A stretch of DNA of 64,000 nucleotides from Candidatus Latescibacterota bacterium (GTDB lineage Bacteria > Latescibacterota > UBA2968 > UBA8231). Under the pieces are notes generated by a model, which saw only the letters and a program-made list of their open reading frames with translations, was not told the DNA's origin and searched no databases. The stretch is taken from NCBI GenBank assembly GCA_965248355.1, contig OZ252098.1:3648001-3712000 (forward strand). The letters are read 5' to 3'. Position 1 is the stretch's first letter. Every line of letters begins with the position of its first letter. Made by a program: the position numbers and the translations under genes. Positions 9,307 through 14,819 of this stretch are shown here, piece by piece.

Positions 9307-10481
9307 ATGGCCTACCACACCATCTGGTCTTACCTGTGGGACCTGGTCGACGACGGCATCGATGAGTCCGTCCGCTACCTCGGCCAGGAGCTGGGCCTCG
9401 ACGCCGTCAGCGTGGCCACGGCCTATCACACCTTCCAGCAGCTGCGCCCCCAGCGCCCCGGCGCCAAGCTCCTGACGGCCGACACCGCGGCCCTCTACTT
9501 CCAGCCCGATCCCGCCTTGTACCGGGACACCCGGCTCCGTCCCCACGTGGCGGCCCTCGCCCGCCAGGACAATCCCCTGGCCCGGCTGGCCGAAGCCTGC
9601 CGGCGCGAGGGGCTCGACCTGATCTCGTGGACCGTGGGGCTGCACAACTCCCATCTGGCCGTCGAGTACCCCCACTGCGCCGAACGGACCGCCTACGGCG
9701 ACAATCCCGGCTGGGCCCTGTGTCCGGGCGAACCGGAGGTGCGCTCCTACCTCGTCGCCCTGTGCCGCGACCTGGCCAGCAACTACCAGGTCCGGCGGCT
9801 GGAGCTGGAATCCTGCGGCTTCGGCGGCTACGGCCACTCCCACTACCACGTCAAGGACGGGGTGAACCTGGCGCGGTCGGGCGCTACCTGTTCGGGCTGA
9901 GCTTCTCGCCCGGGTGCCTGGACCGGGCCCGGGAACGGGGGATCGATGGCGAGGGCCTGCAGCGCTGGGTGCGCGGCCGGCTGGACGGGGTCTTCGCCAG
10001 CGGCCGGCCCCTGGAGGGCGACCTCGAGGAGTTCGTGTCCGGCCATCCCGAGCTGCAGGGCTTCCAGGCCATGCGTGAGGATCTGGTCATCTCCCTGGTC
10101 GAGGAGATCCGCCAGGCCAGCGGCGTCGAGGTCTCCTTCCTGCTGATGGGCGACCGCTGGGGCGCCGGCATCGACGGGGCCCGCATGGCCGCCACCGCGG
10201 ATCTCGTGGAGATCCTGGCCTACGTCGATACGCCGGAGAAGATCACCCGGCGGCTCGAGGGTCTCCGGGGGACCGTGCCGGATCCGAGCCGTCTGGTCGT
10301 GGGCCTGCAGGCCTACTACCCATGCGCCGTGGAGGCCGGCGGGCTGGTGGCCCAGGTGGAGGCCGCCAGACGGGAAGGGGTGGAGCAGTTCTCCTACTAC
10401 AACTACGGCATCATGCCCCGCCCCAATCTGGGGTGGCTTAGGCAGTGCACTCTCGGCCCGCCGGCGGCGAGCGTCGGCTGA
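9307..10481 (+). pseudogene. TIM-barrel glycoside-hydrolase-like hypothetical protein, split by a 1-nt frameshift near 9870
   Basis: ORF 9307-9900 (YLWDL, SVATAYH, LCPGEPEVRSY, ELESCGF) continues in another frame as GAVGRYLFGLSFSPGC...FSYYNYG. One extra G at ctgg|cgcg restores VNLGAVGRYLF. Confidence 0.7.
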
Positions 10482-10524
10482 CCCCATCCGAAGCGTCACC
10501 CGGGAGCGGGGCACCAGAAAAACC

Positions 10525-10836
10525 ATGGCATTCGGCCTCTTCGCACAGAGACGGGACGGTCTCGGCGCCGGCATCGTGGTCCTGGCCGCGCTCGTGCTGG
10601 CCCTGTCCCTCTCCCTGCCCCTGCTGCACCACCTGCACCACGGCGGACAGCTCGAGATCGAGGAGTGCCCGGTATCGGCTCTCTCCTCCGCTCTCTCCCT
10701 CGGCGTCCTGGCGCTCCTCGGCCTGTTGCTCCTGGCGCCGCACCGCCGGGACACGCCTCTTCCCCACCCCAAGGCCATCGCGCCCCGCACCATCCACCTG
10801 GCCACCCAGGGCGCCCGCGCACCTCCCCGCTCCTGA
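10525..10836 (+). CDS. DUF2946-like upstream ORF/leader with His cluster and C-terminal RAPP ribosome-arrest motif
   Basis: Hydrophobic N-terminal segment, then LLHHLHHGGQLEIEECPVS, a second hydrophobic segment, a Pro-rich linker and ...QGARAPPRS-stop. Lies directly upstream of the lipoprotein and TonB receptor genes. Confidence 0.8.
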   Translation: MAFGLFAQRRDGLGAGIVVLAALVLALSLSLPLLHHLHHGGQLEIEECPVSALSSALSLGVLALLGLLLLAPHRRDTPLPHPKAIAPRTIHLATQGARAPPRS

Positions 10837-10990
10837 GCATCCGCACCTGATCGACTGAACTCCTGTCCGGCGGCCCTCCGCCGGGTGCGGATGCGTTCTC
10901 CTGCTTCATCTCCGGGATCCGGCCGCATGCGGCCGGCACCCTCCCCTCAGCTCTTCGCGGCGGATTCGCGAAGGCCCCTTCAAGGAGAAC
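10837..10990 (+). promoter_or_regulatory. Structured mRNA leader with anti-SD (putative translational attenuator)
   Basis: 11-bp inverted repeat 10837-10847/10884-10894. GTTCTCCT (10895-10902) is the exact complement of AGGAGAAC (10983-10990), the SD of the next gene. Internal hairpins are also present. Confidence 0.6.
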
Positions 10991-10995
10991 CCGAA

Positions 10996-11514
10996 ATGCT
11001 CAGGAACTACCCCATTCCCGGCAGCGCTTTCCTGCTCCTCCTCCTGGCGGGTTGCGGCGACGACGACAACCCCGTCGACCCGGACCACGGCGAGGAAGAA
11101 CACGCCGAAGCGGTTGGATTGATCATCCGCAGCAGCGGCGAAGAGATCGTTCGCTACGAGAACGGCCAGGTCGAGGGCGCCATCGAGGTCGGCCACGACC
11201 GGGAGACGCCCCTGCTCACGGTGCGGTTCATCGCCGAGGACGGCGACCTCTTCGCCCCGGAGGCGGACGAGGGCTTCTCCCTGGGCTGGGAGATCGGTGA
11301 CGAGACCATCGCCGAAGTGGAGCAACACGAGCAGGACGGCCCCTGGGCCTTCCACATCGTCGGCCTCGGAGAGGGTCAGACCACCCTCGTCCTCAAGGTC
11401 CTCCACGCCGGGCACGCCGACTTCGTCTCCAGGGAGATCGACATCCACGTCGAGGAAGACGGTCCGGGCGAGGATCCCGACCAGGACCACGATCACGACG
11501 ACGACCAAGGCTAG
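10996..11514 (+). CDS. His/Asp-rich lipoprotein, putative metal-binding partner of the TonB receptor
   Basis: Lipobox LLAG|C, DHGEEEHAE, HAGHADF and C-terminal DQDHDHDDDQG. RBS AAGGAG. Confidence 0.8.
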   Translation: MLRNYPIPGSAFLLLLLAGCGDDDNPVDPDHGEEEHAEAVGLIIRSSGEEIVRYENGQVEGAIEVGHDRETPLLTVRFIAEDGDLFAPEADEGFSLGWEIGDETIAEVEQHEQDGPWAFHIVGLGEGQTTLVLKVLHAGHADFVSREIDIHVEEDGPGEDPDQDHDHDDDQG

Positions 11515-11517
11515 GGC

Positions 11518-13725
11518 TTGCGCCTCGTCCCCCTCTCTCTGCTCCTCCTGGGTCTGGCCTCGGCCCCCGCCCGCGGCCAGACCGGCGCCCTGGCCGGCCA
11601 CGTGGTCGACACCGAGAACGGCCAGGCCGTGGGATGGACCACCATCGTCATCGAGGACCTCGACCGGGCGCGGACCAGCGACTCCGAGGGACACTTCTTC
11701 TTTGCCAACGTACCCCCCGGCGTCCATGTCCTGCGCACTCTGCGCATCGGCTACCACGACGCCCGCTTCGAAGTCGAAATAACCGCCGGCGATACCATCC
11801 ACGTCGATCTCCAGATCGGTCACGAGACCATCGAGGTGAGGGCCGTGATCGTCGAGGGCGAACGGGTCCACCCCCTCTCCCCGCTCCAGGAACCCGAGGT
11901 CGTCTTCAGCAGCAGCAAGCTGCGCCAGAACCTGAGCCGCACCATCGCCGAGACCATCGACTACGAGCCGGGCATCGCCCAGCGATCCATGGGCCCGGCG
12001 CCCTCGAGGCCGGTGCTGCGGGGCCTGGGCGGCGACCGCCTGCTGGTGCTCGAGGACGGCGAGCGCACCGGCGATCTGTCGGCCACCTCCTCGGACCACG
12101 CCGTGGCCATCGAGCCCATGACCACCGAGCGCATCGAGGTGGTGCGCGGCCCCCGGACCCTGCTCCACGGATCCAATGCCCTGGCCGGGGTCGTCAACGT
12201 GCTGCGGGGATACGTGCCCTCCGAGCTGCCCGACGGCCTGGGGGGCTCCTTCACCTGGCAGGGGGAGAGCGTCAACCGGGGCCTCGCCGGCGGCCTGGCC
12301 CTCGAGCACGCCCTCGGCCCGCTGGCGCTGCGCGCCGACGGCAGTCTGCGCGACGCCGGCGCCATCGCCACCCCGCGCGGGGAACTGCCCAACACCGGGA
12401 TCCGCACCGGCAACGCCTCCGCCGGCGCCGGGCTGGTGCGGCCCTGGGGGCACGTGGGCGCCTCCGGCAGCATCTACGACTCCCACTACGGCATCCCTCC
12501 CGACCCGGAGGGCGGCCACCCCCACGGGGTCTCCGTCGACCTGCTGCGCCAGCATCTCGTGGCGCGCGGCGAGATCCTCGCCGGGCCGGCCTGGCTGCAG
12601 CGCCTGGAGCTGCACCACTCCTTCTCGCGCTACCGCCACGGCGAATTCGAGGCGGACGGCTCCCTGGGCCTGGAGTTCGGCGTGCTCTCCCACCACGGCG
12701 GCGCCCTGGCCCACCTCGAACCCGCCGGCCCCCTGGCCAACGCCGCCGCCGGCCTGTGGTACGAGTACCGCAACTACGCGGCGGCCGGGCTCAACTTCAC
12801 ACCCGCCGCCGAGGAATACGCGGGGGCCCTCTTCACCTGCCAGGAGGCGGAGGCCGGCCCCTGGTCGGCCAACGCCGGCCTGCGCGTCGACGCCCGTCGC
12901 GTCGAGCCGCGCGAGGAACGCCACTCCCGCACCGTCGGCCGTATCCGGAGCCGCGACTTCGCCGGCCTGTCCGCCGGACTGTCCAGCCACTACCGGGCCA
13001 CCTCGACCCTGACCCTTGGGGCGACCTTCATGCGCACCTTCCGCGCCCCCGGCATCGAGGAGTTGTTCTCCGAAGGGCCCCACCTGGCCGCCTATTCGTA
13101 CGAGGTGGGCAACGGCGATCTGAACACCGAGCGCGGCCTGGGGCTTGAGATCTTCGCCGAGTACCGGCACCAGGAGGGCCAGATTCACCTGGCCTTCTTC
13201 CGCAACGCCATCGACGGCTACATCTTCCCCAGGAACACGGGCGATCGCAGCCTGAGGCGGGCCGATCTCTTCCTCTACAGAATGGTGGGAGAGTCCGTCC
13301 TCATGCACGGTGCCGAGGCGGCCTTCGACTGGCACCTGGCGCGCGCCTGGAAGGCGGCGGGAACCCTCGGCCACGTGCGGGGCCGCCTCACCGGCCTCGG
13401 CGGCGAGCCCCTGCCGCGCCTGCCCCCCCTGCAGGGCCGGGTCACCCTGACCTGGGAACCCTCCGAGTCCCTGAAGGCGGCGGCCGCCCTGCGCCTGGCC
13501 GCGGACCAGGATCTGCCGGGAGAGTTCGAGGAGCCCACCGAGGGCTACGCGGTGCTGGACCTCTCGGCCGACCACCAGGTGCACTGGGGGGGGCGCCTGC
13601 ACACCTTCGCCCTGACCCTGGAAAACGCCACCGACGCGGTCTACCGCAACCACCTCAACCGCGTCAAGGAGATCCTGCCCGAGCCGGGCCGCAACCTGCG
13701 CCTGCTGCACAAGGTGTTCTTCTGA
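11518..13725 (+). CDS. TonB-dependent receptor, ZnuD-like metal transporter with N-terminal carboxypeptidase-regulatory-like domain
   Basis: Plug motifs RPVLRGLGGDRL, DHAVAIEP and IEVVRGPRTLLHGSNALAGVVNV. Barrel motifs RAPGIEELFSEGPH, LPRLPPL, YRNHLNRVKE. Terminal Phe. Confidence 0.9.
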   Translation: MRLVPLSLLLLGLASAPARGQTGALAGHVVDTENGQAVGWTTIVIEDLDRARTSDSEGHFFFANVPPGVHVLRTLRIGYHDARFEVEITAGDTIHVDLQIGHETIEVRAVIVEGERVHPLSPLQEPEVVFSSSKLRQNLSRTIAETIDYEPGIAQRSMGPAPSRPVLRGLGGDRLLVLEDGERTGDLSATSSDHAVAIEPMTTERIEVVRGPRTLLHGSNALAGVVNVLRGYVPSELPDGLGGSFTWQGESVNRGLAGGLALEHALGPLALRADGSLRDAGAIATPRGELPNTGIRTGNASAGAGLVRPWGHVGASGSIYDSHYGIPPDPEGGHPHGVSVDLLRQHLVARGEILAGPAWLQRLELHHSFSRYRHGEFEADGSLGLEFGVLSHHGGALAHLEPAGPLANAAAGLWYEYRNYAAAGLNFTPAAEEYAGALFTCQEAEAGPWSANAGLRVDARRVEPREERHSRTVGRIRSRDFAGLSAGLSSHYRATSTLTLGATFMRTFRAPGIEELFSEGPHLAAYSYEVGNGDLNTERGLGLEIFAEYRHQEGQIHLAFFRNAIDGYIFPRNTGDRSLRRADLFLYRMVGESVLMHGAEAAFDWHLARAWKAAGTLGHVRGRLTGLGGEPLPRLPPLQGRVTLTWEPSESLKAAAALRLAADQDLPGEFEEPTEGYAVLDLSADHQVHWGGRLHTFALTLENATDAVYRNHLNRVKEILPEPGRNLRLLHKVFF

Positions 13726-13811
13726 AGCGGCACCCCGCTTGTAGCCAACCCCCGTCGGACTAGATTACCGCGCAAGGACCGGCCCCGTCACCGCCCCATC
13801 CGGAGGATCCC

Positions 13812-14819
13812 ATGCCCGCCCTGACCCGCGACCAGATCGAGCACTTCGAAGAGCTGGGCTACGTCGTCGTCGACGACGTCATCGACCCCGAGAAGACCCT
13901 CGATCCCGTGATCGAGGAATACGCCGGGGTCCTCGACCAGCTCGCCGACGAGCTCTACGAGCGCGGCGACATCCCCTCGCGCTACGAGCACCTCGCCTTC
14001 GGCGAGCGCTACATCCGGATCTGCATCGAGACGGGGAGCGTCCACAGCCAGTACTTCGACTTCTCCCTGCCCTTCCAGAACGTCCGGCCCGCCACCCCCT
14101 TCTGGGCCGGCCCCGCCGTCTTCCGGGCCCTGACCGACGAGGACCTGCTCGACGCGGTGGAGTCCCTCATCGGCCCCGAGATCTACTCCAACCCGGTGCA
14201 GCACGTGCGCATCAAGCCGCCCGAGCAACACCTGCCCACCAACGCCCACGGCAATGCCATCCTGGGGGCCACTCACTGGCACCAGGACCACGGCGTGGTC
14301 ACCGCCGAGGCGGACGAGACCCGCATGCTCACCGTCTGGTTCTCGCTGCAGGACACCCCCATGGAAAAGGGCCCCCTCCACCTCGTGCCGGGCTCGCACC
14401 GCAACGGCCTGCTGCCCCACTGCCCCAACTACATGGGCAACGGCCCCAAGGCCGCCGGCAGCACCCAGATCCCCGAGAAGCTCTTCGACGCCGGCCACTC
14501 GCGGGCCCTGCCGGTGGGGCCCGGGGCCGTCATCTTCATGCACAAGCAGACCGTCCACGGCTCCCTCTCCAACGTCAGCGACGACGTCCGCTGGAGCTTC
14601 GACCTGCGCTACAACCCCACCCACGAGCCCACCGGGCGCATCGCCTTCCCCGGCTTCGTGGCCCGCAGCCGCGCCAACCCCGACACCGAGTTGCGCGATC
14701 CGGAGGCCTGGCACCGCTCCTGGCTCGAGGCGCGGGCGAACATGTCGATGATCAACCAGGGCGGGAAGATCGACATACCCTTCCGCCGTCCCCGGACCGA
14801 GCATCTCCTCTGCGCCTGA
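13812..14819 (+). CDS. Phytanoyl-CoA dioxygenase (PhyH) family Fe(II)/2OG oxygenase
   Basis: LTRDQIEHFEELGY, WHQD (HxD), VPGSHR, distal HGSLSN and RWSFDLRY. Confidence 0.9.
   Translation: MPALTRDQIEHFEELGYVVVDDVIDPEKTLDPVIEEYAGVLDQLADELYERGDIPSRYEHLAFGERYIRICIETGSVHSQYFDFSLPFQNVRPATPFWAGPAVFRALTDEDLLDAVESLIGPEIYSNPVQHVRIKPPEQHLPTNAHGNAILGATHWHQDHGVVTAEADETRMLTVWFSLQDTPMEKGPLHLVPGSHRNGLLPHCPNYMGNGPKAAGSTQIPEKLFDAGHSRALPVGPGAVIFMHKQTVHGSLSNVSDDVRWSFDLRYNPTHEPTGRIAFPGFVARSRANPDTELRDPEAWHRSWLEARANMSMINQGGKIDIPFRRPRTEHLLCA

Follow-up and report, generated by a model that had tools for sequence, protein, structure and literature searches.

The closest described relatives of the leader analysed here are CruR of Bordetella pertussis and CutF of Rhodobacter capsulatus, the two tested leaders of this kind, both of which sense copper (PMC9426467, PMC9973294); non-copper versions have so far been proposed in print. 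CruR (Bp2923, a DUF2946/PF11162 protein), as described in PMC9426467, is encoded by the first gene of cruR-bfrG-bp2921, ahead of a TonB receptor, and carries an N-terminal export segment and a CxxC motif. The spacer between this motif and the C-terminal RAPP is 45 residues long and functionally required, the gap that follows the gene measures 162 nt, control is Rho-dependent, and the stalled state turns the importer on. CutF is a small exported leader with a Cys/His site (CxxxC) and a terminal proline motif (PPP) that heads a detoxifying oxidase; copper switches the system on, and stalling opens an mRNA structure shielding the next ribosome-binding site (PMC9973294, bioRxiv 2025.02.05.636593). 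Clusters of CutF-like leaders that contain His, or His only, are already reported in PMC9973294, together with TonB neighbours and a suggested role for nickel or cobalt. In ApdA and ApdP, RAPP or RGPP lies a few residues from the C-terminus of a small membrane or secreted protein (PMC10951233, PMC12992588). According to PMC12992588, RAPP leaders precede TonB receptors throughout Gram-negative bacteria and those with Cys and His are candidate metal sensors; the same source states that the RAPP motif alone is insufficient for arrest and treats the conversion of metal binding into a pulling force as an open question. A DUF2946 gene heads a Zur-activated efflux operon (PMC4176598), and the Zur-regulated zinc-uptake operon zrg of Vibrio is headed by ZrgD (DUF2607), a one-helix protein of ~100 aa (PMC9817125, PMC9820375). 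No zinc or copper riboswitch is known according to Roy et al. 2022.

The window is the whole stretch of 64,000 nt that was analysed, and its features of interest are collected in Table 1. The first-pass annotation had described a 103-aa ORF with hydrophobic segments, HHLHH, CPVS and a RAPP that only two codons separate from the stop, placed directly upstream of a His-bearing lipoprotein and a TonB receptor in an FCB-type lineage. Translation bears out the ORF, both downstream genes were identified (the lipoprotein has 10 His), and the lineage is Latescibacterota-like, judging by its relatives. The protein ends in GARAPPRS, such that RAPP occupies residues 98-101 and is followed by Arg, Ser and the stop. 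His 35, 36, 38 and 39 and the sole cysteine, Cys48, lie between the two hydrophobic segments, for which Kyte-Doolittle averages over 19 residues peak at 2.59 (from residue 16) and 2.34 (at residues 52-53). The AlphaFold2 model contains helices at residues 3-38 and 49-70 with a mean pLDDT of 67.7, a moderate confidence. Two Lys/Arg residues precede helix 1, none is found in the loop and six follow helix 2, a charge pattern that fits a topology in which the N-terminus of helix 1 is inside, the His/Cys loop is exposed on the outside and helix 2 crosses back. Helix 1 resembles an anchor that is not cleaved. The gene upstream, which is unrelated, stops 43 nt before the leader and may be co-transcribed with it; this gene (9307-10481) appears as two overlapping ORFs (9307-9900 and 9627-10481) without a family match, and a frameshift or an assembly error is possible.

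Table 1 Coordinates of the leader, the mRNA elements of the gap and the downstream genes within the window.
Feature	Position	Strand	Description
Leader ORF, 103 aa	10525..10836	+	Helix 1 at ~13-34, His/Cys loop 35-48, helix 2 at ~50-71, linker, RAPP, stop
Putative metal site	10627..10668	+	H35 in 62/62, H39 in 58/62, E44 in 60/62, C48 in 62/62; H36/H38 in one clade only; metal binding predicted from sequence
RAPP arrest motif (predicted)	10816..10827	+	R in 60/62, PP in 62/62; register taken from ApdA/ApdP as given in PMC10951233
Helix A, 5' strand	10831..10836	+	Ser codon and stop; pairs with 11000-11005; under the assumed footprint of a stalled ribosome
Hairpin P1	10837..10894	+	10837-10847 with 10884-10894; starts at the first base past the stop; loop takes large insertions in relatives
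Anti-Shine-Dalgarno strand (helix B)	10895..10902	+	Pairs with 10983-10990
Lipoprotein start region	10983..11005	+	Shine-Dalgarno 10983-10990, ATG 10996-10998, helix A 3' strand 11000-11005
Lipoprotein, 172 aa	10996..11514	+	Lipobox at Cys20, acidic, 10 His; in 43/58 clustered loci
ZnuD-like TonB-dependent receptor, 735 aa	11518..13725	+	Pfam barrel, plug and CarboxypepD_reg-like domains; four ZnuD ligand positions

The ORF is almost certainly a real leader. Its pattern of RAPP and a hydrophobic stretch alone does not rise above chance, because a six-frame census of the genome for a hydrophobic stretch with a motif at most eight residues from the stop gave one case each of RAPP (this ORF), RGPP, AAPP and AGPP, and none of KAPP. 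The ORF is regarded as real because it is conserved among homologues. No family for it is found in Pfam or NCBIfam; a protein search returned 18 leader homologues among 505 candidates. Among 57 loci with a receptor homologue, mostly from Candidatus Latescibacterota or Gemmatimonadota, an ORF ending in R[AG]PP lies upstream in 41. The other 16 comprise two with a KAPP version, five that are short of upstream DNA, one partial receptor match and eight in which the leader is lost or decayed; the KAPP-ended leaders are those of loci L052 (1725) and L053 (upstream of 2327). By profile search the leader is present in 58 of 168 phylum genomes and in 50 of 75 from the family. Within these 75 family genomes, which are kin rather than independent samples and are partly incomplete, leader and receptor occur together in 45, the leader alone in 5, the receptor alone in 3 and neither in 22. 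Differences at codon positions 1, 2 and 3 number 2463, 1977 and 3325 among 21 related copies, and 85, 61 and 133 among the four copies of the window ORF's own clade; this bias, which favours third positions, is typical of coding sequence.

Across 62 aligned members of the leader family H35, C48, P100 and P101 are invariant, R98 and E44 are kept in 60 and H39 in 58, while the helices and the linker vary freely in sequence. The expected conservation of RAPP and of the His cluster splits: R (60/62), PP (62/62), H35 (62/62) and H39 (58/62) hold, and H36 (9/62) and H38 (7/62) do not, being confined to the window ORF's clade. The four-His cluster as a whole is invariant only among the closest 19 sequences. 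The residue three positions after Cys is C in 16 members, Y in 14, H in 14, S in 8, R in 4 and another residue in 6, and the C state changes at least four times on a weakly resolved tree of 54 rows. The distance from the Cys motif to RAPP is 46 residues in 50 of 55 copies, including the window ORF, 44-45 in four and unparsed in one; in more distant members from other families it is 44-48 or off by a few residues. The gap between the leader and the next gene is 159 nt here and 106-307 nt in relatives.

This pattern bears on two readings in which the leader would not sense a metal for the genes behind it. An ordinary small membrane protein that acts in trans, as a metal chaperone or accessory subunit, would account for the two predicted membrane helices and the His/Cys loop, and RAPP might be incidental, as the motif pattern arises once per genome by chance. 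Nevertheless R and PP hardly vary and keep a fixed distance behind a linker of free sequence, RAPP and RGPP are excluded from proteomes save in such leaders as reported in PMC12992588, the last codons of the leader covary with the start of the next gene, and tandem cassettes hold one copy of the leader for each lipoprotein gene (both described below), so that we regard a function in trans as very improbable. A monitor of membrane insertion or secretion resembling SecM or MifM, with helix 2 as the force element and the His and Cys residues in a structural or redox role, is improbable. Helix 2 is present in 60 of the 62 members and begins 47-50 residues ahead of Pro100, a distance at which insertion force begins: published force profiles place the onset for a helix 45-50 residues from the catalytic centre, with the periplasmic mouth of SecYEG at ~50 (PMC7886326, bioRxiv 2021.02.06.430026). 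Moreover, the fourth ligand position tolerates R, G, N and S, and RAPP peptides are classically monitors of localisation (PMC10951233). Against a pure insertion monitor speaks the strict invariance of H35 and C48 next to helices and a linker that are free to vary; in addition, the identified downstream genes all encode metal-uptake proteins or the lipoprotein, none a Sec or YidC component, and a Fur-type operator replaces the leader in leader-less copies. Taken on its own, control of the downstream genes by translational arrest is highly likely, and responsiveness of the leader to a metal is likely.

The resemblance to a CruR/CutF-like RAPP leader noted in the first-pass annotation is upheld by the spacer, which matches the 45 residues of CruR to within one residue in most copies (PMC9426467). 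As in CruR, the leader is the first gene before a TonB receptor, has an N-terminal export segment, places a Cys motif 45-46 residues ahead of a C-terminal RAPP and leaves a gap of ~160 nt (PMC9426467). Several features by which CruR-type leaders are recognised are found: a C-terminal RAPP, a spacer of 45 ± 2, a predicted N-in membrane helix, and a position first before metal-homeostasis genes with a long gap. The rules on size and layout given for CutF-like leaders in PMC9973294 likewise describe it, with a length of at most 150 aa, PP at most 15 residues from the C-terminus and a following gene in the same orientation no more than 1000 nt away; these rules also call for a cleavable Sec signal peptide. 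Like CutF, it would be a small exported leader with a Cys/His site and a terminal proline motif, and we propose a similar logic of unmasking the next start (PMC9973294, bioRxiv 2025.02.05.636593). Unlike CruR, the window leader has CPVS instead of CxxC, conserved H35 and H39 and a second strong hydrophobic helix after the Cys, its target carries the ZnuD ligands, and the ORF has no PF11162 match; CruR acts through Rho (PMC9426467), whereas conserved pairing of the start region suggests translational control here. Unlike CutF, with its CxxxC, PPP, induction by copper and oxidase target (PMC9973294, bioRxiv 2025.02.05.636593), it heads an importer, and the masking structure would be a three-helix junction that spans a long range and is closed by the final codons of the leader itself.

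Membership in DUF2946 (PF11162) was checked by Pfam search, and the outcome was divided. The window ORF has no match at E ≤ 1 (the family cut-off is 23.7 bits), while 21 of the 62 family members match at E ≤ 1; 14 of 15 tested CxxC members match weakly, at 15-23.7 bits, one at the cut-off, and none of three non-CxxC members does. DUF2946 is also the nearest named cluster in a language-model comparison (Atlas, 0.90), which serves as a lead only. On these sequence comparisons the ORF is filed as part of a divergent DUF2946/CutF-like clade and not as a DUF2946 member. The CutF-like clusters of PMC9973294 and the leader sets of PMC12992588 may already contain the family. The language-model likeness of the leader to ZrgD/DUF2607 (Atlas, 0.89) is likewise a lead only. 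Membership in DUF2607 was rejected, with no PF10795 match at E ≤ 10 in the genome; from the literature and the Atlas value of 0.89, Vibrio zrgD might itself be an unrecognised leader.

Behind the leader, the lipoprotein has no family in Pfam or NCBIfam and no relative in the PDB (best E 0.61), and 3 nt separate it from the receptor gene. The prediction of a ZnuD-like importer downstream is supported at the sequence level. The best PDB match of the receptor is ZnuD of Neisseria meningitidis (PDB 4RDR, E 2.7e-33), and ZnuD (NF038289) is also the best of the 25 NCBIfam families listed, at 146.2 bits against a cut-off of 950. Receptor residues D193, H194, E376 and H522 align with D99, H100, E340 and H499, the zinc ligands of ZnuD named in the review PMC6288298; these correspond to PDB chain positions 113, 114, 354 and 513, with a constant offset of 14 counted from the alignments. 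Of the 43 receptor ORFs retained by the filter, 43, 43 and 42 contain the respective ligand motifs. Unlike ZnuD, the receptor has an extra N-terminal CarboxypepD_reg-like domain and a much shorter His-rich loop, and unlike the ZnuD case no Fur-family regulator was found in the window genome. The genes that neighbour the leader in relatives are of the zinc type as well. In 58 clustered loci they include a COG0523/CobW GTPase (12), its WD40 partner (11), ZIP (8) and an SO_0444-type Cu/Zn transporter (16); AztABC-like genes together with a Fur-family gene occur in the loci of 3-4 relatives, and behind one distant leader come a porin-like gene, ZnuA, ZnuB and a gene of the Fur family. In the window genome only ZIP, of these neighbour genes, has a clear counterpart, located far away. 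That genome, which is 95.7% complete, yielded no ZnuA or Fur-family match and three DtxR-type matches.

The first-pass annotation had read the degenerate CxxC beside a His cluster as the sign of a non-copper metal. That argument is not supported: CxxC copies head the same pair of genes, and H36 and H38 are specific to one clade. CPVS does not by itself mark a non-copper metal or a changed target, because CxxC relatives head the same lipoprotein-receptor pair and the residue changes repeatedly. CxxS as the mark of a different target was therefore rejected, the downstream pair being the same across fourth-residue variants and the changes recurring on the tree. Zinc is the leading candidate because of the genes that are regulated, and not because of the CPVS motif of the leader. 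The same switch could answer to another metal, copper or cobalt/nickel, or to several. Both tested members, CruR and CutF, sense copper (PMC9426467, PMC9973294), 16 of the 62 members have CxxC, with weak DUF2946 matches, and His-only CutF-like clusters are tied to nickel/cobalt genes in PMC9973294. In locus L118 (1266-7117) a CPVD leader heads a receptor, a lipoprotein, COG0523 and CbiM, and is a candidate for a cobalt/nickel version. On the other side stand the four ZnuD ligands of the receptor, which the copper receptor OprC matches in the plug only (E ~1e-11), the ZIP, COG0523, AztABC-like and ZnuAB neighbours, and the scan of 11 + 15 neighbour proteins, in which the SO_0444 Cu/Zn transporter was the only copper family. 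A signal other than zinc appears unlikely for the switch; the claim that zinc is the main signal, judged by itself, is nearly balanced and leans slightly to the negative.

The gap region between leader and lipoprotein folds better than all of 200 shuffled sequences (z -2.71), forming the three helices A, P1 and B. The 3' strand of helix A coincides with lipoprotein codons 2-3. In 42 of 52 distinct loci, many closely related to one another, helix A outperforms shuffled sequences (p ≤ 0.05), and its sequence is wholly different between clades but complementary each time, two groups sharing one version. Cognate pairs score 16-21.5 and cross-clade swaps mostly 8-13, with no cognate advantage in three distant members. 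Swap and shuffle tests were used in place of column-wise covariation because the MAFFT alignment of the gap misplaces the helices across clades. Out of sample, helix A passes in 6 of 16 loci, with four more lacking a scoreable downstream gene and two dropped as duplicate or decayed; a fifth version, from another family, covers the Shine-Dalgarno sequence directly. Only 14 of 766 ordinary gene pairs in the window genome reach a weight of 20; the window locus, by our own count with the same weighting, has 21. Helix B does better than shuffled sequences in only 5 of 52 loci, and a CTCC-type strand directly follows P1 in 14 of the 16 copies listed. P1 is the most stable conserved element of the gap. 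In loci L015, L018 and L032 the gap loops carry insertions of 100-160 nt, and P1, the anti-Shine-Dalgarno strand and helix A are intact.

The footprint of a stalled ribosome is 12-18 nt. With the first Pro codon (10822-10824) in the P site, the register reported for ApdA/ApdP (PMC10951233), a stalled ribosome would by analogy cover exactly the 5' strand of helix A. With this footprint masked, the start region opens at a median cost of 9.2 instead of 13.1 kcal/mol, with a drop of at least 2 in 33 of 53 loci, a comparison that has no control of its own. At the window locus the cost falls from 14.0 to 13.0 kcal/mol and the Shine-Dalgarno sequence stays paired. Which way the switch works does not follow from folding, because masking the footprint of a terminating ribosome lowers the cost as much or more (to 11.2 kcal/mol here; in 35 of 53 loci). 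The direction, with the stall turning the genes on, is therefore inferred by analogy from the importer logic of CruR (PMC9426467) and from the importer nature of the target.

These folding results can also be read in favour of a metal-responsive arrest peptide that works by Rho-dependent transcription attenuation, in which P1 is a polymerase pause hairpin and pairing of the start region is secondary. CruR works in this way with a gap of 162 nt, close to the 159 nt here (PMC9426467), the Shine-Dalgarno sequence remains paired in the window fold, and no other conserved element is as stable as P1. If attenuation were all, however, helix A would not need to be rebuilt in five sequences, always against the start region or Shine-Dalgarno, and the + strand has no intrinsic terminator; as the sole mechanism attenuation seems to us hardly probable, and the two layers of control may coexist. 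Neither a sigma-70-like promoter nor a + strand intrinsic terminator was found in 10200-14000, and Rfam gave no match at E ≤ 1 over 10200-11100. Thirty of 55 leaders (in loci L009-L046) have a -35/-10-like pair that ends 5-9 nt before the ATG, as in leaderless transcripts, a raw count without a chance control; no such pair is seen for the window ORF or its clade. RNA-library contigs from three runs of one study are near-identical to the locus and skip 10521>10721 and 10760>11039, thereby losing most of the leader, the entire gap and the beginning of the lipoprotein gene, with further skips in the receptor; they may stem from a degenerate copy in a closely related strain or from an artefact of the library. 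The five RNA runs listed for the locus have shares of only 0.05-0.07, and the four that were aligned consist of contigs from relatives, which carry no information on transcript start, strand or level and do not enter the evidence.

Taken together, it is rather probable that the ORF encodes a metal-responsive arrest leader which acts in cis, belongs with the DUF2946-like leaders CruR and CutF and governs how a zinc-type uptake pair is translated. In the proposed mechanism, helix 1 would insert with its N-terminus inside and place H35, H39 and C48 at the periplasmic face. The ribosome would stall at RAP/P once helix 2 has moved 47-50 residues away from the catalytic centre, the distance at which a transmembrane helix begins to insert and pull. 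Because of the force-profile distances cited above, C48, H39 and H35, which are 52, 61 and 65 residues out, could meet the metal at the outer face. When the metal is scarce the stall would persist, the Ser codon and stop would be covered, helix A would open and the lipoprotein start would be easier to load, the receptor presumably being translated by coupling to the lipoprotein across the short intergenic gap. Metal, most likely Zn2+, would bridge H35/H39 to C48, so that the helical hairpin closes, pulls and releases the stall; the RNA junction would then refold and the import genes would be turned down. The fixed 46-residue spacer and the membrane helix right after the Cys suggest how metal binding could become a pulling force, the question left open in PMC12992588. 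The conserved leader would be a variant within the CruR/CutF kind, and it probably responds to zinc, on the strength of its target and not of CPVS. No zinc-sensing arrest leader or post-transcriptional zinc leader of this kind was found in the open-access literature. The family lends itself to a clean test: its target carries the ZnuD ligands, no Fur/Zur gene is detected in the host, nature supplies a series of ligand variants on one and the same target, and the mRNA helix can be broken and restored.

Copies of the receptor without a leader point to a second mode of control. Operators were sought with Fur/Zur box patterns, and the only palindrome form that gave a coherent set was GATAAT-2-ATTATC. 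Five loci in which the leader is lost or decayed (L013, L031, L035, L039 and L043) have an AT-rich 9-2-9 palindrome upstream of the receptor and lie near a Fur-family gene. The scoring matrix was derived from five such sites, of which three come from these leader-less copies themselves (close kin), so that the comparison is partly circular; on it the five copies score 29.6-32.8, the leader-less L027 16.9, three other leader-less copies 3.5-6.1 and 53 leader-headed copies at most 13.2; the window genome has no site at ≥15. These sequences suggest that a single receptor can be controlled by either the leader or a repressor, one taking the place of the other. At L043 (2947-3333; the same place as L110), which lies downstream of a Fur-type palindrome and a Fur-family gene, the 5' part of the leader is lost, its stop is read through and the RNA gap is intact. 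At L052 a Fur-box-like palindrome lies upstream of the KAPP leader, and both controls may be stacked there.

A further reading, tentative and somewhat doubtful, is that a zinc-sensing nascent-chain switch stands in for Zur: zinc would staple the two helices, arrest would be released and the three-helix junction would re-mask the importer start. That the same receptor is wired to either a leader or a Fur-family operator belongs to this Zur-substitute reading and is held just as tentatively. Among the leader-bearing genomes of the family, 33 of 50 have no Fur-family gene. Such genes occur in 17 of 50 leader-bearing and 6 of 25 leader-less family genomes and are not rarer with the leader. Mutual exclusion of leader and Fur-family gene across genomes was rejected, as the leader is found in 17 of the 23 family genomes with a Fur-family gene and in 33 of the 52 without one. 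The family (f1) has a Fur-family gene in only 23 of its 75 genomes, while nearly all genomes do in most other families of the phylum.

Leaders also occur in more than one copy per locus. Tandem leader-lipoprotein cassettes are seen in 12 of the 57 loci: L009 (1866-3227), L010, L015, L016, L018, L021, L030, L032, L033, L036, L045 and L046. The first leader of such a pair has CPAY and a Phe before H39, and the second, which adjoins the receptor, has CPAC and a Cys in that place. The tandem leaders are possibly two sensors of different affinity, and within the Zur-substitute reading their different ligand sets could grade the response. In L002-L005, leader paralogues that carry HHLDDC and CPIS, with Asp in place of H39, stand directly before a receptor without the lipoprotein, and a second TonB receptor gene comes next.
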